Source: Escherichia phage vB_EcoM-BECP11. Taken from it: a stretch of 64,000 bases of DNA. The stretch is from the sequence record MW286157.1. One strand, 5' to 3'. Below, in pieces: positions 30,490 to 59,760 of the stretch (position 1 is the stretch's first letter; each line of letters opens with the position of its first letter). A program made the position numbers and the translations under genes. The notes under the pieces were generated by a model. That model searched no databases and was not told the origin of the DNA. It was given only the letters and a program-made list of their open reading frames with translations.

Positions 30490-30562
30490 TGGGAATTAGC
30501 CAAGTTGGTAAGGCACTGGATTTTGATTCCAGGATGCAAAGGTTCAAGTCCTTTATTCCCAG
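30490..30562 (+). tRNA. tRNA-Gln (UUG)
   Basis: Hand-folded cloverleaf: acceptor TGGGAAT/ATTCCCA, anticodon loop TTTTGAT, T-loop TTCAAGT; no encoded CCA. Confidence 0.85.
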
Positions 30563-30563
30563 C

Positions 30564-30650
30564 GCGAGAATGGTCAAATTGGTAAAGGCACAGCACTTAA
30601 AATGCTGCGGAATGATTTCCTTGTGGGTTCGAGTCCCACTTCTCGCACCA
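30564..30650 (+). tRNA. tRNA-Leu (UAA)
   Basis: Acceptor GCGAGAA/TTCTCGC, anticodon loop CTTAAAA, long variable arm, encoded CCA. Confidence 0.85.
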
Positions 30651-30655
30651 AATTT

Positions 30656-30729
<74 letters not shown>

Positions 30730-30739
30730 ATTTAATTTA

Positions 30740-30813
30740 CTCCGTGTAGCTCAGTTTGGTAGAGCGCCTGATTTGGGATCAGGAGGTCCAAGGTTCAAAT
30801 CCTTGTATGGAGA
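30740..30813 (+). tRNA. tRNA-Pro (UGG)
   Basis: Anticodon arm CCTGA-TTTGGGA-TCAGG, T-arm CAAGG-TTCAAAT-CCTTG, acceptor with two G-U pairs. Confidence 0.8.
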
Positions 30814-30815
30814 CT

Positions 30816-30905
30816 GGAGGCGTGGCAGAGTGGTTTAATGCACCGGTCTTGAAAACCGGCAGTCGCTCCGGCGACTCATAGGTTCGAATCCTATCGCCTC
30901 CGCCA
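30816..30905 (+). tRNA. tRNA-Ser (UGA)
   Basis: Acceptor GGAGGCG/CGCCTCC, anticodon loop CTTGAAA, long variable arm, T-loop TTCGAAT, CCA. Confidence 0.85.
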
Positions 30906-30910
30906 GTTTT

Positions 30911-30986
30911 GCTGATTTAGCTCAGTAGGTAGAGCACCTCACTTGTAATGAGGATGTCGGCGGTTCGATTCCGTCAATCAGCACCA
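30911..30986 (+). tRNA. tRNA-Thr (UGU)
   Basis: Acceptor GCTGATT/AATCAGC, anticodon arm CCTCA-CTTGTAA-TGAGG, CCA. Confidence 0.85.
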
Positions 30987-30987
30987 A

Positions 30988-31062
30988 GGCCCTGTAGCTG
31001 GAAGGTTCAAGCAAGCGACTCATAATCGCCAGATGGTGGTTCAATTCCACCCAGGGCCACCA
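30988..31062 (+). tRNA. tRNA with CAU anticodon (Ile2 type as in T4, formally could be Met)
   Basis: Acceptor GGCCCTG/CAGGGCC, anticodon loop CTCATAA, T-arm GGTGG-TTCAATT-CCACC, CCA. Confidence 0.75.
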
Positions 31063-31074
31063 AATTATGAATTA

Positions 31075-31161
31075 GGGGAGTTATCCCGTAGAGGTAGCGG
31101 TGTGGACTGTAAATTCATTGTCATTGCGACTCGGGTGGTTCGACTCCATCACTCCCCACCA
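31075..31161 (+). tRNA. tRNA-Tyr (GUA), type II
   Basis: Perfect acceptor GGGGAGT/ACTCCCC, anticodon loop CTGTAAA with U33 and A37, long variable arm with 3 bp stem, CCA. Confidence 0.7.
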
Positions 31162-31165
31162 ATTT

Positions 31166-31240
31166 GGATGTGTAGCTCAATGGCAGAGCGATCGCCTGTT
31201 AAGCGATTGGTTATAGGTTCGAATCCTATCACGTCCGCCA
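31166..31240 (+). tRNA. tRNA-Asn (GUU)
   Basis: D-arm GCTC/GAGC, anticodon arm ATCGC-CTGTTAA-GCGAT, T-arm ATAGG-TTCGAAT-CCTAT, CCA. Confidence 0.8.
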
Positions 31241-31354
31241 AATTTGTGACAACTGTCACATTAATATCTACTTGACGCGATTATAGGGGTTGAACTGATC
31301 ACTCTTCTCTTAATTTCGTGTGAAGACATCATGATTGTTGGAGTAGGTATTAAT

Positions 31355-31430
31355 GTGGCCGTAGTTCAGTTGGTAGAACTCGAGATTGTGATTCTCGTAG
31401 TCATGGGTTCGACTCCCATCGGTCACCCCA
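31355..31430 (+). tRNA. tRNA-His (GUG) with extra 5' G(-1)
   Basis: 8 bp acceptor including G-1 opposite C73, anticodon arm CGAGA-TTGTGAT-TCTCG, T-loop TTCGACT, CCA. Confidence 0.8.
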
Positions 31431-31434
31431 ATTA

Positions 31435-31510
31435 CGGGGCATAGCTCAGAAGGAAGAGCAAGGACCTTCTAAGTCCTGGGTCGTAGGTTCGATCCCTACT
31501 GCCTCGACCA
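31435..31510 (+). tRNA. tRNA-Arg (UCU)
   Basis: D-arm GCTC/GAGC, anticodon arm AGGAC-CTTCTAA-GTCCT, T-loop TTCGATC, CCA. Confidence 0.85.
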
Positions 31511-37958: not shown

Positions 37959-38501
37959 ATGAGAACATTTTTAACTGGCCCGTATCTATCCTTGATGAAT
38001 GCTTTTACACACCATTCTGATGCTAGAGTAGAAGAACTCTGTAAGAATGATTATCTTCCACCAATGGAAGATGTGCTCAAACAGTACTGCACACTTCGTA
38101 TAGATGGTGGACGTCAATCCGGTAAATCAGTTGCTGTGACTAACTTTGCCGCTAATTGGCTGTATGATGGCGGAACAGTTATTGTTCTTTCTAATACTTC
38201 AGCTTACGCTAAAATTTCTGCTGGCAACATTGAAAAAGAATTTTCTCGTTATTCTAGCGATGATATTCGATTCCGTTTATTTACTGATTCTGTCCGTAGT
38301 TTTATCGGTAATGAAGGTCATAAATTCCGTGGGTTATCGCTTTCTCGTATCTTGTACATAATTGACGAACCTATTAAAGCTCCTGATATGGATAAGATTT
38401 ACAATATCCATATTAAAACGGTACAACACTGTTGTCGAAGCTATAATGCTGAAACAGGTGAAACAGTTCGTCCTCAATTTTTTGTGATTGGAATGCAATG
38501 A
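37959..38501 (+). CDS. small P-loop NTPase-like protein
   Basis: Walker A-like GGRQSGKS and Walker B-like ILYIIDEP; start uncertain (in-frame ATGs at 37893, 37908, 37926, 37959; track ORF begins at TTG 37845). Confidence 0.5.
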   Translation: MRTFLTGPYLSLMNAFTHHSDARVEELCKNDYLPPMEDVLKQYCTLRIDGGRQSGKSVAVTNFAANWLYDGGTVIVLSNTSAYAKISAGNIEKEFSRYSSDDIRFRLFTDSVRSFIGNEGHKFRGLSLSRILYIIDEPIKAPDMDKIYNIHIKTVQHCCRSYNAETGETVRPQFFVIGMQ

Positions 38502-38827
38502 TGACAGACACACAGCTTTTCGAATATCTCTATTTTTCACCAAAAACTATTAAAAATAAATTGGTGAATCATTTTGAAATTTTAGCAAATAATAACATTT
38601 TGAGCGAATTTTATCCCAAGCAATACAAATTACAAAAAGGCGTATTCAAAGGATGCAGAGTTTTGTGTACTGCTCCTAACGCGCAGTTAATGAATAAAAT
38701 TCCATATTTTACCATGGAATTTATTGATGGACCTTTTAAAGGACTAATCACCCAAAGTTTAATGGCATATGATTCTGAGCCATTTTTAATTAAAGAACAA
38801 TCTTGGATAAATTTATTTTCTAATTGA
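38498..38827 (+). CDS. hypothetical protein
   Basis: 109 aa, ATGA coupling. Confidence 0.55.
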
Positions 38828-38834
38828 GGTTTAT

Positions 38835-39197
38835 ATGAAAGCATATCAAATTCTTGAAGGCACACATAAAGGTACTATTTATTTTGAAGATGGTATTCAA
38901 GCACGAATTATTGTCTCTAAAACCTTTAAAGAGGACTCTTTTGTAGACCCAGAAATTTTCTACGGTTTGCATGCCCGTGAAATTGAAATTGAGCAACAAC
39001 CTACAGTTAAAATTGAAGGTGGTCAACACCTGAACGTTAACGTTCTGCGTCGTGAAACTCTGGAAGATGCAGTTAAGCATCCGGAAAAATATCCGCAGCT
39101 GACCATCCGTGTATCAGGTTATGCAGTTCGCTTTAACTCTCTGACTCCGGAACAGCAGCGCGACGTTATCGCTCGTACCTTTACTGAGAGTTTGTAA
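38835..39197 (+). CDS. autonomous glycyl-radical cofactor (GrcA/YfiD-like) protein
   Basis: C-terminus ...[59 protein letters not shown] carries the RVSGY glycyl-radical motif; 3' half uses host-like CTG/CCG/CAG codons. Confidence 0.8.
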
Positions 39198-46838: not shown

Positions 46839-47300
46839 ATGATTATTAATGAAAACTCTTGGCATTATAAATTATTCAAATTGTTTAACGACGAATGGCA
46901 ACGACCTAAGACGCTATGTGCATACTTTTGGTCTATTGTTATCCCTACATTTTTCGTTTCTATTTTTGGGTGTGCTATACTCGTAGGGCTGACAATTATT
47001 TGTGCAGAAAGTTTACAGCGCTGGCTTATTTTCGGTAGTTTATGGACTCTTCTTCCATCGGCATTTATACTTGCGCTTTTGGTTGTTTTACTTATTATCG
47101 GTTCATTTGTTATTCCTGCACATTTGCGTGAAAAATATAAAGATTATAAATGGAAAAAGGATTATGCTTTACACGTAGAAAATATTGATAGGGTGTATAA
47201 AGGTTTACCTCCTATTCAACCCAAGAAATCGATTATCGTTGAATTTTTAAAAGCTCGTAAAGCTAAAGTATGTCCTGTTATTGAATATAAGGCTGAATGA
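46839..47300 (+). CDS. membrane protein
   Basis: 153 aa with about three hydrophobic helices. Confidence 0.6.
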   Translation: MIINENSWHYKLFKLFNDEWQRPKTLCAYFWSIVIPTFFVSIFGCAILVGLTIICAESLQRWLIFGSLWTLLPSAFILALLVVLLIIGSFVIPAHLREKYKDYKWKKDYALHVENIDRVYKGLPPIQPKKSIIVEFLKARKAKVCPVIEYKAE

Positions 47301-48310
47301 TGAAAACAGTAATGAAAAGCTATTTTGGTAGTCATCTTTATGGAACTTCTACTCCAGAATCTGATGTAGATTTTAAAGAAATCTTTGTTCCTCCTGCTCG
47401 CGATATTCTTATCGGAAATGTTAAAGAGCATATGAGTAAAAATACCAACAACACATCATCTAAAAACACTAAAGATGATATTGACCACGAATTGTATAGT
47501 CTTAAGTATTTCTTTAAATTAGCAGCAGATGGTGAAACTGTAGCATTGGATATGCTTCACACTCCACCTGAACTAGTGGTTAAATCTGATTTGCCTGATG
47601 TGTGGAAGTTTATTCAAGACAACCGTTCTCGTTTTTATACGACGAACATGAAATCCTATTTAGGATATGTTCGCAAGCAAGCTTCTAAATACGGTGTCAA
47701 GGGTTCTCGTTTGGCTGCATTACGCGATGTATTGAAAGTAGTTAATCAAATCCCTGACCAGTGGGTCGACTATCAAGAAGGAATCCCCGATAGACTTCGT
47801 CGTACTAAGGTAGAAGATATCAAACACAGACTCCCTGAAAACGAGTTCTGTGAATGGGTGTTCCATAATCACGAGAAAACAGGCCCGCAAACGTTCTACA
47901 CTGTGTTGGGTCGTAAATATCAGACAACACTTTCTCTTATTGAGCTTAAGCAGTCACTGAACAAATTAGATGCTGAATATGGTGAACGTGCTCGTAAAGC
48001 CGAAGCTAATGAAGGTATTGATTGGAAAGCTCTGAGTCATGCTTGTCGTGGTGGACTTCAACTATTGGAAATTTACAAAACTGGTGACTTGATTTATCCA
48101 CTCCAAGATGCTCCATTTATTCTCGACGTGAAGTTGGGTAAGCATCCATTTAAAACAGTTCAAGAGTTTTTGGAAGATGTGGTCGATCAAGTAGAAGCAG
48201 CATCTACTGAAGCTTCTAAGAACGGTATGCAGCAAAAAGTAGACATGGGTTTCTGGGATGACTTCCTTGAGAAGGTCTATCTTGAAAACCACCGAAGTTA
48301 TTATAAATGA
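47297..48310 (+). CDS. Pol-beta-superfamily nucleotidyltransferase-like protein
   Basis: 337 aa; N-terminal YFGSHLYGTSTPESDVDF fits the G-S-x9-13-D-x-D nucleotidyltransferase motif; ATGA-coupled to membrane protein gene. Confidence 0.6.
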   Translation: MMKTVMKSYFGSHLYGTSTPESDVDFKEIFVPPARDILIGNVKEHMSKNTNNTSSKNTKDDIDHELYSLKYFFKLAADGETVALDMLHTPPELVVKSDLPDVWKFIQDNRSRFYTTNMKSYLGYVRKQASKYGVKGSRLAALRDVLKVVNQIPDQWVDYQEGIPDRLRRTKVEDIKHRLPENEFCEWVFHNHEKTGPQTFYTVLGRKYQTTLSLIELKQSLNKLDAEYGERARKAEANEGIDWKALSHACRGGLQLLEIYKTGDLIYPLQDAPFILDVKLGKHPFKTVQEFLEDVVDQVEAASTEASKNGMQQKVDMGFWDDFLEKVYLENHRSYYK

Positions 48311-49657: not shown

Positions 49658-49755
49658 TTCATAAGAGGCCTTCTAAGATAAAAAGGCAGTTCAGAAATAG
49701 ATTATATGGACTGCCATCAAAAAGATGACTAGAATTAAACTGGTAAATGGAGGTA

Positions 49756-50061
49756 ATGATGTTATACTCAAAGGCTCGTGAAATTTACGAAACTAAAATT
49801 AAAGAAGCAGTATTTCAGTTCGCAACAACGATGCGATGGACAAATGATTGGGAGTATTCAAAAAATCATAAGAAGCCCTTGGTGACAAGAAAGGCTCATA
49901 TGTTAGTGTTAATAGACCGTGAGCAGATTAAAGCCCGAGAAGCCCTCCAGAATCATAAAAAGGCTGCCTTTGAATGGTTTATGGATAACACTGCTCCTGA
50001 GACTAAGAAAGCAGTGAGCGCTTGGTTCAGTGGAAAAAATTGTGAAAGAAGTTTCTTTTAG
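49756..50061 (+). CDS. hypothetical protein
   Basis: 101 aa; start chosen after SD GGAGG (alternative in-frame ATGs at 49747 and 49759). Confidence 0.5.
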   Translation: MMLYSKAREIYETKIKEAVFQFATTMRWTNDWEYSKNHKKPLVTRKAHMLVLIDREQIKAREALQNHKKAAFEWFMDNTAPETKKAVSAWFSGKNCERSFF

Positions 50062-57005: not shown

Positions 57006-57479
57006 ATGTTATTGACTGGCAAATTATATAAAGAAGAAAAACAGAAATTTTATGATGCACAAAACGGTAAATGCTTAATTTGCCAACGAGAACTAAATCC
57101 TGATGTTCAAGCTAATCATCTTGATCATGACCATGAATTAAATGGACCAAAAGCAGGAAAGGTACGTGGATTGCTTTGTAATCTCTGTAATGCCGCAGAA
57201 GGTCAAATGAAGCATAAATTTAATCGTTCTGGCTTAAAGGGGCAAGGTGTTGATTATCTTGAATGGTTAGAAAATTTACTTACTTATTTAAAATCCGATT
57301 ACACCCAAAATAATATTCACCCTAACTTTGTTGGAGATAAATCAAAGGAATTTTCTCGTTTAGGAAAAGAGGAAATGATGGCTGAGATGCTTCAAAGAGG
57401 ATTTGAATATAATGAATCTGACACTAAAACACAATTAATAGCTTCATTTAAGAAGCAGCTTAGAAAGAGTTTAAAATGA
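57006..57479 (+). CDS. 49: recombination endonuclease VII (Holliday junction resolvase)
   Basis: 157 aa; CLIC...HLDHDH...CNLCN zinc and HNH-like motifs; recognised as T4 gp49. Confidence 0.9.
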   Translation: MLLTGKLYKEEKQKFYDAQNGKCLICQRELNPDVQANHLDHDHELNGPKAGKVRGLLCNLCNAAEGQMKHKFNRSGLKGQGVDYLEWLENLLTYLKSDYTQNNIHPNFVGDKSKEFSRLGKEEMMAEMLQRGFEYNESDTKTQLIASFKKQLRKSLK

Positions 57480-59293
57480 CAATTGAAAAAGAAATTGAAG
57501 GATTGATTCATAAAACTAATAAAGACCTTTTAAACGAGAATGCTAATAAAGATTCTCGTGTTTTTCCAACTCAACGGGACCTTATGGCTGGTATTGTGTC
57601 TAAACACATTGCCAAAAATATGGTCCCGTCTTTTATTATGAAAGCGCATGAAAGCGGAATTATCCATTTCCATGATATTGATTATTCCCCTGCTCTTCCA
57701 TTTACTAATTGCTGTTTAGTAGATTTAAAAGGAATGCTTGAAAACGGATTTAAGCTCGGTAATGCACAGATTGAAACTCCTAAATCAATCGGCGTTGCTA
57801 CTGCAATTATGGCACAAATTACTGCACAGGTTGCTTCTCATCAATATGGCGGAACGACTTTTGCGAATGTAGATAAAGTACTTTCTCCTTATGTTAAACG
57901 CACCTATGCAAAACATATTGAGGATGCAGAAAAATGGCAAATCGCTGATGCGTTGAATTATGCTCAATCTAAAACAGAAAAAGACGTATACGATGCATTC
58001 CAAGCTTATGAATATGAAGTAAATACTCTCTTTAGTTCAAACGGACAAACACCTTTTGTAACAATTACATTTGGTACAGGAACTGACTGGACTGAACGAA
58101 TGATTCAGAAAGCAATTCTGAAAAATCGTATTAAAGGTCTTGGTCGTGATGGGATAACTCCTATTTTCCCTAAGCTTGTTATGTTCGTTGAAGAAGGTGT
58201 TAATCTTTATAAAGACGATCCGAACTATGATATTAAACAGCTTGCTCTAGAGTGCGCAAGCAAAAGGATGTATCCTGATATTATTTCAGCTAAGAACAAT
58301 AAAGCTATCACTGGTTCATCTGTTCCTGTTTCTCCAATGGGTTGCCGTAGTTTCTTGAGCGTATGGAAAGATTCGACTGGTAATGAAATTCTTGATGGAC
58401 GTAATAATCTTGGTGTTGTAACACTGAATCTTCCTCGCATCGCGTTAGATTCTTATATTGGAACACAGTTCAATGAACAGAAATTTGCTGAATTATTCAA
58501 TGAACGAATGGATTTATGTTTTGAAGCTTTGATGTGTAGAATTAGTTCCTTAAAAGGAGTTAAAGCTACTGTTGCTCCTATTCTTTACCAAGAAGGTGCA
58601 TTCGGGGTTCGTCTTAAACCTGATGACGACATAATTGAGTTATTTAAAAACGGTAGAAGTTCAGTGTCTCTAGGATACATTGGTATTCATGAATTGAATA
58701 TTCTTGTCGGTCGTGATATTGGACAAGAAATTTTAACTAAAATGAATGCTCATCTTAAACAGTGGACTGAAAGAACTGGATTTGCTTTTAGCTTGTATTC
58801 TACTCCTGCTGAAAACCTTTGTTATCGCTTCTGTAAACTTGATACAGAAAAATATGGAAGTGTAAAAGATGTTACCGATAAAGGTTGGTACACTAACAGT
58901 TTCCATGTTTCAGTAGAAGAAAATATTACTCCGTTTGAAAAGATTTCTCGTGAAGCGCCATATCATTTCATTGCGACAGGCGGTCACATTTCTTATGTTG
59001 AACTTCCTGATATGAAAAATAATCTAAAAGGTCTTGAGGCCGTGTGGGATTATGCTGCACAGCATTTAGATTATTTTGGTGTTAACATGCCAGTAGATAA
59101 ATGTTTTACATGCGGAAGTACCCATGAAATGACTCCTACTGAAAACGGATTTGTTTGTTCTATTTGTGGAGAAACTGATCCTAAAAAGATGAATACCATA
59201 AGAAGAACATGTGGTTATTTGGGAAATCCTAACGAACGCGGATTTAATCTCGGTAAAAATAAAGAAATCATGCATAGGGTTAAACACCAATGA
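57476..59293 (+). CDS. nrdD: anaerobic ribonucleoside-triphosphate reductase NrdD, uninterrupted
   Basis: 605 aa continuous ORF; C-terminal glycyl-radical motif RRTCGYLGNP and CxxC zinc site. Confidence 0.95.
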   Translation: MTIEKEIEGLIHKTNKDLLNENANKDSRVFPTQRDLMAGIVSKHIAKNMVPSFIMKAHESGIIHFHDIDYSPALPFTNCCLVDLKGMLENGFKLGNAQIETPKSIGVATAIMAQITAQVASHQYGGTTFANVDKVLSPYVKRTYAKHIEDAEKWQIADALNYAQSKTEKDVYDAFQAYEYEVNTLFSSNGQTPFVTITFGTGTDWTERMIQKAILKNRIKGLGRDGITPIFPKLVMFVEEGVNLYKDDPNYDIKQLALECASKRMYPDIISAKNNKAITGSSVPVSPMGCRSFLSVWKDSTGNEILDGRNNLGVVTLNLPRIALDSYIGTQFNEQKFAELFNERMDLCFEALMCRISSLKGVKATVAPILYQEGAFGVRLKPDDDIIELFKNGRSSVSLGYIGIHELNILVGRDIGQEILTKMNAHLKQWTERTGFAFSLYSTPAENLCYRFCKLDTEKYGSVKDVTDKGWYTNSFHVSVEENITPFEKISREAPYHFIATGGHISYVELPDMKNNLKGLEAVWDYAAQHLDYFGVNMPVDKCFTCGSTHEMTPTENGFVCSICGETDPKKMNTIRRTCGYLGNPNERGFNLGKNKEIMHRVKHQ

Positions 59294-59760
59294 ATTATGA
59301 TAGATTTTATCCTTGCGATTTTGTTAATGGTCCTGGGTGCAGGACCGTTCTTTTTGTTACTGGATGTTTGCATAAATGCGAAGGGTGTTATAATAAATCA
59401 ACATGGAATGCTAGAAATGGTATTCCATTCACTGGTGAAACATTAGAACAATTAATTGAATGTTTGAATAATGATTATATAGAAGGATTAACTATAACCG
59501 GGGGTGACCCTCTCTATCCTGATAACCGAGATGTTGTTCATTGCATTGTTCAAACAGTAAAAAATCTTTATCCCAATAAAAGCATTTGGTTGTGGACAGG
59601 ATATAAGTTTGAAGATATTAAACAACTAGAAATGCTTAAATATGTTGATGTTATTATTGATGGGAAGTATGAGAAAAATCTTCCGACCAAAAAGCTGTGG
59701 CGAGGATCAGATAATCAGCGACTTTGGTCAAATACCGATGGGGTGTGGACACATGATTAA
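59290..59760 (+). CDS. nrdG: anaerobic RNR activating enzyme NrdG (radical SAM)
   Basis: 156 aa; CxxxCxxC cluster motif CLHKCEGC; ATGA-coupled to nrdD. Confidence 0.9.
   Translation: MNYDRFYPCDFVNGPGCRTVLFVTGCLHKCEGCYNKSTWNARNGIPFTGETLEQLIECLNNDYIEGLTITGGDPLYPDNRDVVHCIVQTVKNLYPNKSIWLWTGYKFEDIKQLEMLKYVDVIIDGKYEKNLPTKKLWRGSDNQRLWSNTDGVWTHD

Follow-up and report, generated by a model that had tools for sequence, protein, structure and literature searches.

The window analysed in this work is a stretch of 64,000 nucleotides (nt) of Escherichia phage vB_EcoM-BECP11 (sequence record MW286157.1). At positions 38835-39197, on the plus strand, the listing of its open reading frames (ORFs) gives a coding sequence of 363 nt for a protein of 120 residues, the ortholog of the phage T4 gene vs.6 (product Y06I, UniProt entry GRCA_BPT4) and a phage homolog of the Escherichia coli gene grcA. 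It starts with an ATG and ends with a TAA stop codon overlapping the ATG of the next ORF (39197); a GAGG ribosome-binding site, read from the sequence, lies on the same strand at 38826-38829 and overlaps the stop of the upstream ORF (38498-38827). Three parts, all on the plus strand, can be distinguished within the gene. The 5' half (38835-39012, residues 1-59) is of phage type and codes for a diverged homolog of the GrcA N-terminal region, according to the G+C content at third codon positions (GC3), the codon score, hhalign, and the ratio of nonsynonymous to synonymous divergence (dN/dS). It is followed by a tract of 175 nt (39013-39187) which is 100% identical to E. coli grcA (dS = 0) and codes for a glycyl radical domain of the pyruvate formate-lyase (PFL) type; the GGT codon at 39117-39119 specifies Gly95 of the RVSGY motif, the radical site predicted from the alignment to the GrcA structure 6OWR and to residues 697-759 of PflB. 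The last part (39188-39197: the last base of GAG, then AGT TTG TAA) is again of phage type, and here fall three synonymous mismatches to E. coli. The GAGAG at 39186-39190 (plus strand), 7-11 nt before the ATG at 39197, is likely the Shine-Dalgarno sequence of the overlapping downstream gene.

The assignment to the vs.6 orthologs of the Tevenvirinae is based on near-identity and on the conserved position in the denV-regB early region. The gene shares 98.6% of its nucleotides with ORF 63.1 of the T4 record X04567, and the two proteins differ only in two allelic residues (Q54P and R73H). An exact-sequence look-up placed the window's protein in the same 90% protein cluster as UniProt P13316 (NP_049730), curated under the name "autonomous glycyl radical cofactor", and retrieved it, unchanged, on 167 contigs; orthologs in other phage records are labelled either vs.6 or autonomous glycyl radical cofactor. 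T4 and the window share the protein length of 120 residues, the host-identical tract, and the gene order denV, two ORFs, vs.6, short ORFs, regB, vs.1. Downstream of vs.6 lie RegB and the vs.1-type transglycosylase ORF, the flanking ORFs agree with the X04567 map, and over the 6 kb surrounding it the window shows 97.6% identity with Escherichia phage KIT03. The gene has been listed as one of eleven unknown ORFs conserved across T4-like genomes (PMC1524935).

The initial annotation had proposed that the 3' half of the gene derives from the host. By blastn, grcA was matched in all 5,426 complete E. coli genomes, in every case only with gene bases 179-363 and with a best identity of 98.4%; the bases upstream of 179 did not align to any of these 5,426 genomes. 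The pairwise alignment to E. coli grcA resolved this match into 175 consecutive identities (bases 179-353, window positions 39013-39187), which bears out the proposal, followed by three mismatches (bases 354, 357, and 358), all synonymous and all confined to the three sense codons preceding the stop; the DNA ahead of base 179 was essentially unalignable between the two genes. Moreover, a megablast search of window positions 25001-50000, the part covered by this screen, against all the E. coli genomes did not retrieve any other near-identical chromosomal match besides the tract.

The composition of the gene changes together with its similarity. The 5' half has a G+C content of 0.33 and a GC3 of 0.20, the 3' half of 0.48 and 0.42, respectively. 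As a background, 466 stretches of sixty codons were drawn from 65 long ORFs of the window; relative to these, the 5' half falls at the median, whereas the 3' half belongs to the lowest 1.3% for the phage-codon score and to the top 0.6% for GC3. CTG is used for five of its six leucines (5% in the window's genes), CCG for all three prolines (13%), and CAG for three of four glutamines (29%). These windowed statistics agree with the initial annotation, according to which the 3' half uses host-like codons (CTG, CCG, CAG) and the 5' half phage-like ones; the border between the two, which it had set at codons 55/56, lies instead at codons 59/60.

Both junctions of the tract are sharp. The left one (39012/39013) stands directly before the GAAGG of the EGGQH motif, where the phage-host similarity begins, and the right one (39187/39188) three codons ahead of the stop. 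The last codons of the gene (GAG AGT TTG) are closer to those of RB43-like phages (GAG AGT CTA) than to those of E. coli (GAA AGC CTG), and at the position equivalent to GAGAG, T4 X04567 and phage Mineola each have an annotated ribosome-binding site. That the patch ends at this point would be accounted for either by usable homology running out or by selection acting on the next gene's ribosome-binding site. With 175/175 identities (64-86% in other phages), sharp junctions, and a GC3 of 0.42 versus 0.20, the tract has the features of a recombined segment of host origin.

The similarity of the 3' half to the host gene exceeds what a conserved domain predicts, since the same residues are encoded elsewhere with a far lower nucleotide identity. 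An explanation without any transfer would attribute the identity to extreme purifying selection or to convergent codon adaptation on a conserved domain, and the domain is indeed strongly conserved as a protein across all the phage and host copies. However, in RB43-like phages the identical stretch of 57 residues is written with 29 synonymous changes (nucleotide identity about 83%, dS about 1.8), T5-like copies reach an identity of about 75%, and 43 of the 43 synonymous sites of the tract agree with E. coli, with codons that are rare in the phage. More generally, the copies from CC31-like, T5-like, jumbo, and other phages reach 64-86% identity with their best match among 83 host grcA sequences; the CC31-like and RB43-like tracts are 77-85% identical to any host and have a GC3 of 0.26 (phage codons) and 0.46, respectively. 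The existence of phages encoding the same residues with phage codons rules out both conservation and convergence as the source of the identity, and we assign this explanation next to no probability. Identity alone gives no direction, so that the 3' half of E. coli grcA might in principle have been taken from a T-even phage. The synonymous divergence of the window's tract is 0 from E. coli, 0.05 from cryptic Escherichia, 0.38 from Citrobacter, 0.65 from Klebsiella pneumoniae, and 1.13 from Salmonella, and E. coli grcA itself diverges similarly in its 5' and 3' halves from Citrobacter (0.53 and 0.38), Klebsiella (0.71 and 0.65), and Salmonella (0.87 and 1.13). The two halves of the host gene having diverged in parallel, the host copy is vertically inherited and the transfer went from host to phage; furthermore, the codon usage of E. 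coli grcA is host-like in both halves, the tract being compositionally foreign in the phage and not in the host. A transfer in the reverse direction is thus very improbable. As for an assembly chimera or a contamination of the window with host DNA, nothing beyond the abruptness of the junction speaks for it, and its probability is negligible: 643 phage records show this mosaic at an identity of at least 95%, the T4 record X04567 included, which excludes an assembly artefact, the reading frame is intact, and the last codons are of phage type. The accession X04567 dates from the 1980s.

Another alternative concerns the nature of the event and what the protein does. The initial annotation had described a host radical domain fused to a phage N-terminus and had suggested that the protein might serve as a spare radical domain for oxygen-damaged NrdD, the anaerobic (class III) ribonucleotide reductase (RNR) of the phage, as well as for host PFL. 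The host origin of the 3' half is in agreement with such a fusion, and the presence of NrdD and NrdG in the window was borne out by Pfam matches: nrdD lies at 57476-59293 (plus strand; PF13597, E = 2.6e-171, plus PF01228, the Gly_radical family) and nrdG, for the radical-SAM activase of NrdD, at 59290-59760 (plus strand; PF13353, E = 4.3e-48, and PF04055). Moreover, grcA-like genes adjoin nrdD and nrdG in other phages, and reviews leave room for spare parts that would serve glycyl radical enzymes besides PFL. The N-terminal half, however, is not an unrelated phage sequence. Its 59 residues alone align to the N-half of GrcA with 34% identity (E = 7e-5, pairwise), and a profile of 11 phage N-halves matched one of 11 bacterial GrcA N-halves end to end over 60 columns (hhalign probability 96.7%, E = 3.3e-10), which identifies it as a GrcA-type N-terminal region. 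It is under purifying selection (dN/dS about 0.13), and the 5' half is 72-76% identical at the nucleotide level to that of CC31-like phages and 59-62% to that of RB43-like phages, whose vs.6 genes have 3' halves not copied from any host; metagenomic phage copies, L023 and L038 among them, are visibly intermediate. Since the N-half is homologous to GrcA and shared with phages lacking a host-copied 3' half, the whole gene would be an old phage grcA homolog whose 3' part was replaced. The event thus looks like the replacement of a patch inside a pre-existing gene rather than a domain fusion, and the last three codons are still of phage type, as a patch within an existing gene predicts.

Regarding NrdD, the two proteins both match the broad PF01228 family, but their likeness is limited to a Gly-Tyr dipeptide preceded by an arginine (RVSGY in vs.6, RRTCGY in NrdD), and the NrdD motif follows a zinc ribbon that vs.6 lacks. 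BLASTP of vs.6 against full-length NrdD gave E = 6.3 and no meaningful alignment, no local alignment was obtained with the C-terminal 125 residues of NrdD at E up to 100, and no NrdD chain is present among the 33 PDB matches of vs.6. In addition, the copies embedded in nrdD-nrdG clusters of other phages still have a PFL-type domain. On these grounds, vs.6 cannot be assigned to the spare parts of class III RNRs and the idea of a replacement domain for NrdD was rejected; a single fusion of a host radical domain to an unrelated phage N-terminus, serving both NrdD and PFL, appears quite improbable. Immediately upstream of nrdD, an endonuclease VII gene of the T4 gene 49 type (57006-57479) overlaps its start by 4 nt.

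The data point instead to PFL, as the initial annotation had also suggested. The C-terminal part of the vs.6 protein matches Pfam PF01228 (E = 2.5e-18), residues 61-120 are identical to residues 68-127 of E. coli GrcA, and the radical domain as a whole is that of E. coli GrcA except for a conservative Ile in place of Val just before EGGQH. The best of the 33 PDB matches are GrcA (6OWR, 9e-42) and residues 697-759 of PflB (5e-26, 49 of 63 residues identical), and the best NCBIfam match is TIGR04365, spare_glycyl (E = 1.2e-45). A PFL-type radical domain with RVSGY, in a small stand-alone protein without a catalytic barrel, places vs.6 in the GrcA/YfiD group (TIGR04365; IPR011140). It shares with E. 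coli GrcA (YfiD, 6OWR) the residues from EGGQH to the C-terminus, the 175 identical nucleotides, and a homologous N-terminal region, and differs from it in an N-half that is only about 34% identical, 7 residues shorter, and written in phage codons; the host gene sits in the arrangement ung-grcA-eamB, the phage gene in an early-gene cluster. With the C-terminal domain of PflB (697-759) it has in common the same fold module and the RVSGY radical loop, but vs.6 has no ten-stranded catalytic barrel and works in trans. Gly95 is equivalent to the radical glycines G102 of GrcA and G734 of PflB, and GrcA restores formate production in vivo (PMC12338860). According to the account given in PMC8683613 of the work of Wagner (2001), T4 Y06I, like YfiD, receives its radical from the PFL activase and rescues oxygen-cleaved PFL. 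The role as a spare part for host PFL has thus been reported biochemically for an ortholog two residues different, and the window's protein, a T4-type phage GrcA, would be expected by analogy to act in the same way. The N-terminus of GrcA is disordered and promotes radical installation, its role being otherwise unclear (PMC13450708); the phage N-halves represent a diverged but selected set for studying it.

In order to relate the tract to the phylogeny of the phages, seven Tequatrovirus copies were compared with nine of Mosigvirus type. Thirteen fixed differences are found in the 180-nt 5' half and none in a 171-nt tract (Fisher p = 2e-4), and the last codon is again fixed within each group (TTG in Tequatrovirus, CTA in Mosigvirus). 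Between the window and the Mosigvirus-type copies, the synonymous divergence falls from 0.33 in the 5' half to 0.02-0.07 in the tract. A comparison with the Mosigvirus-type locus L007 along 3.4 kb gave identities of 67-68% for the flanks, 91% for the 5' half, and 99.4% for the tract. The window's tract is identical to the grcA allele of E. coli 503025 and that of L007 to the allele of E. coli SK1144; the two alleles are distinguished by the Ser codon of RVSGY (TCA and TCC, respectively), cryptic Escherichia has TCT, and all three are found both in Escherichia and in phages. The window, with its TCA allele and without the R73H change, carries a cleaner copy of E. coli grcA than T4 does. A second type of tract occurs in Jiaodavirus, phages infecting Klebsiella, whose 5' half is 72% identical to that of the window. 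The identity of the Jiaodavirus tract, represented by phage Mineola, amounts to 94.7-94.8% with K. pneumoniae grcA and to 85-87% with E. coli grcA; of the 22 sites discriminating E. coli from Klebsiella, 16 are of Klebsiella type, and the GC3 is 0.61 (0.23 in the 5' half), with the same two junctions.

These comparisons suggest that the overwriting happened at least twice, giving rise to the E. coli-type tract of Tequatrovirus and Mosigvirus and to the Klebsiella-type tract of Jiaodavirus, and that within the E. coli phages it was probably repeated. T4 recombines readily with homologous cytosine-containing DNA in the infected cell, and marker rescue from plasmids is a standard procedure, which makes the patching of a phage gene from a host chromosome mechanistically plausible.

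A possible link of the gene with nucleotide metabolism comes from its surroundings in other phages. Same-strand clusters with the order nrdD-grcA-nrdG, or nrdD-nrdG-grcA in the case of L043, occur in four IMG/VR loci (L026, L028, L029, and L043; grcA-like gene at about 1501-1860), and in Aeromonas phage BUCT695 (L183, 309-683) nrdD is immediately upstream of the grcA-like gene, on the same strand. The phages showing such an adjacency are jumbo phages of about 350 kb, a phage of 235 kb, and an Aeromonas phage of 86 kb, and T5-like phages, such as SpoonbillGilly, carry both a grcA-like gene and nrdD. The location of a grcA-like gene beside nrdD and nrdG suggests a module for anaerobic deoxyribonucleotide synthesis. 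Class III RNRs, the T4 enzyme included, use formate as the reductant (PMC4493059). The cell obtains its formate from PFL. On the most economical reading of the clusters and of this formate dependence, phage GrcA would safeguard the formate needed in anaerobic deoxyribonucleotide synthesis; a functional link between vs.6 and NrdD through formate is plausible and more likely than the replacement of a radical domain.

According to these considerations, the following scenario can be depicted. The host PFL activase (PflA) would place a radical on Gly95 of the free-standing, 14-kDa phage GrcA, which would then dock on a host PflB whose radical domain has been cut off by oxygen, restoring the conversion of pyruvate into acetyl-CoA and formate. 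The benefit for the phage might consist in keeping fermentative energy and, above all, formate flowing under the micro-oxic conditions of the gut, formate serving in turn as the reductant of its own NrdD. T4-like phages would long have carried a diverged grcA homolog, and in the lineages infecting E. coli, recombination with the chromosomal grcA would have overwritten the host-homologous stretch, which starts at the first codon of EGGQH and reaches to three codons before the stop; its left end would mark the limit of phage-host similarity, and its right end would fall just before the codons carrying the ribosome-binding site of the next gene. We consider this scenario, a T4-type phage GrcA acting as a PFL spare part, with a 3' tract overwritten from the host, quite likely. 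The wider proposal, in which a strictly lytic T-even phage tracks its current host by recurrent patching (at least two and probably at least three independent events across Tequatrovirus, Mosigvirus, and Jiaodavirus, always with the same two junctions) of the radical-domain half of a gene that keeps host PFL supplying formate to phage NrdD, is more tentative, and we give it slightly less than an even chance.

Several data weigh against the scenario or parts of it. The TIGR04365 score of the window's protein (154.9 bits) is below the equivalog cutoff of 170 bits (E. coli GrcA scores 234), because the N-half has diverged. In the window, vs.6 lies 18 kb from nrdD. As regards Jiaodavirus, the tract is almost equally close to K. 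pneumoniae (9 differences) and to Pseudocitrobacter (10), and no donor with at least 97% identity was retrieved, the best being K. pneumoniae (94.7%) and Pseudocitrobacter (94.2%). The comparison covered 80 species-representative genomes, PLSDB records consisting in fact of chromosomes, and two contig look-ups following a protein search; the latter, run with the 57-residue domain, yielded mainly truncated gene calls and was of little use. The differences among the six Jiaodavirus tracts are mostly changes from GC to AT, so that the tract looks like one older transfer in decay rather than the product of fresh re-copying. The diversity of the tract in these six isolates had been considered as a sign of multiple donors, and this reading was rejected, decay being simpler given the GC-to-AT bias. 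Informative sites are few throughout, and in the E. coli phages recurrence rests on 43 synonymous tract sites and one shared polymorphic site, and the latter, the Ser codon, could be a mutational hotspot. Neither Aeromonas phage BUCT695 nor the T5-like phages have a host-like tract; the former, tried as a further host-like case, was rejected, its tract being 82% identical to E. coli and 75% to Aeromonas.

A live rival of recurrent patching is a single acquisition, in which the E. coli-type tract entered a common ancestor, or a single lineage, once and then spread or persisted in Tequatrovirus and Mosigvirus by phage-phage recombination, with slow synonymous change and no renewed host input. 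T-even phages recombine freely, the junctions are the same in all the copies, most of the differences from E. coli are private single-base changes, and the Jiaodavirus tract itself resembles a single transfer in decay. On the other hand, the zone of low divergence coincides exactly with the 175 nt homologous to the host, although phage-phage flanks that are 91% identical would permit crossovers anywhere; all nine Mosigvirus-type copies retain their own single-nucleotide polymorphisms to within 10 nt of the left junction, together with their own last codon; synonymous divergence drops from the 5' half to the adjoining tract as reported above; and two of the phage tracts match two different extant E. 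coli alleles exactly. On balance, a single acquisition seems unlikely, and repeated copying from the host remains the reading that we prefer for the E. coli phages.

The gene and its biochemical role are already known, having been described in 2001 and curated in UniProt, and the gene itself adds nothing new to the catalogue. Neither the mosaic at the nucleotide level, nor recurrent host patching, nor the formate-NrdD rationale was found in the searchable literature; subscription papers were outside this search, so that an earlier notice is possible. Recurrent host patching may thus be unreported. A comparable case is psbA of cyanophages, a photosystem gene that is a mosaic of host and phage segments exchanged with the host copy by intragenic recombination. 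Both are metabolic genes carried by phages with segments exchanged with the host; vs.6 differs in its enterobacterial host, in the strictly lytic phage, and in the single, sharply bounded, host-identical tract of 175 nt, which, unlike psbA, adjoins a half too diverged to recombine. As a natural marker, vs.6 cleanly records recombination of a virulent phage with the chromosome of its host, its tract, set between phage-type flanks, differing according to the host genus, and gene conversion from host to phage becomes measurable in the laboratory at this locus. Furthermore, the adjacency of grcA with nrdD and nrdG in unrelated phages and the formate dependence of the reductase offer a testable reason for the presence of a PFL repair part in phages.

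Some observations concern other phage-host pairs and the databases used. The 3' half of the gene in the metagenomic phage contig L022 (about 1711-1893) shares with Haemophilus parainfluenzae grcA (L154) an exact run of 53 nt and 86% identity, its close relatives sharing runs of only 23 nt, and it might represent a partial patch of host origin in another phage-host pair. The RB43/RB16-like copies L013-L017 have the E. coli-type LEDAVKH and the sister contigs L018 and L019 the Klebsiella-type LLDAVEH, with tracts about 80-84% identical to host DNA; this split looks like host-tracking at the protein level or like old patches that have since drifted. PLSDB includes whole or partial chromosomes labelled as plasmids, such as L172 (CP125156.1) and L173 (LR134122.1), one such record being a 5.37-Mb K. 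pneumoniae sequence, and the grcA of K. aerogenes NCTC10006 in LR134122 is frameshifted, probably by an assembly error.

Other observations regard variants of the gene. In Escherichia phage vB_VIPECOOM03, a Tequatrovirus (L182, 401-769), the protein has 122 residues owing to a duplication of 6 nt (IEIE to IEIEIE) that closely precedes the host-identical tract. A frameshift or an early stop cuts the homolog in a 167-kb Jiaodavirus-like contig (L027, 1501-1650) and in two other viral contigs (L037 and L039, 1450-1551), which indicates either that the gene is dispensable in some lineages or that these are sequencing errors. In the T5-like contigs L044-L069 (about 104-122 kb), the N-terminus of the grcA-like protein begins with the motif MKAYQ of T4-like vs.6 and is otherwise different; the shared start hints at an exchange of grcA-like genes between phage families.

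Lastly, in the part of the window compared with the E. coli genomes (25001-50000), the sole other match to E. coli records is the tRNA-Tyr region (31072-31164), about 90% identical to tRNA-Tyr on E. coli plasmid records; it belongs to a group of 11 tRNA genes at 30490-31510 (Gln, Leu, Gly, Pro, Ser, Thr, Met, Tyr, Asn, His, and Arg). Two segments, 47690-47989 (in ORF 47297-48310) and 49750-50049 (in ORF 49747-50061), have a codon usage even less phage-like than that of the tract, with a GC3 of 0.43-0.47. Their ORFs code for an RlaP-family nucleotidyltransferase and a DUF7203 protein, respectively; the segments have no near-identical match in the E. coli genomes, so that their origin is different or older.

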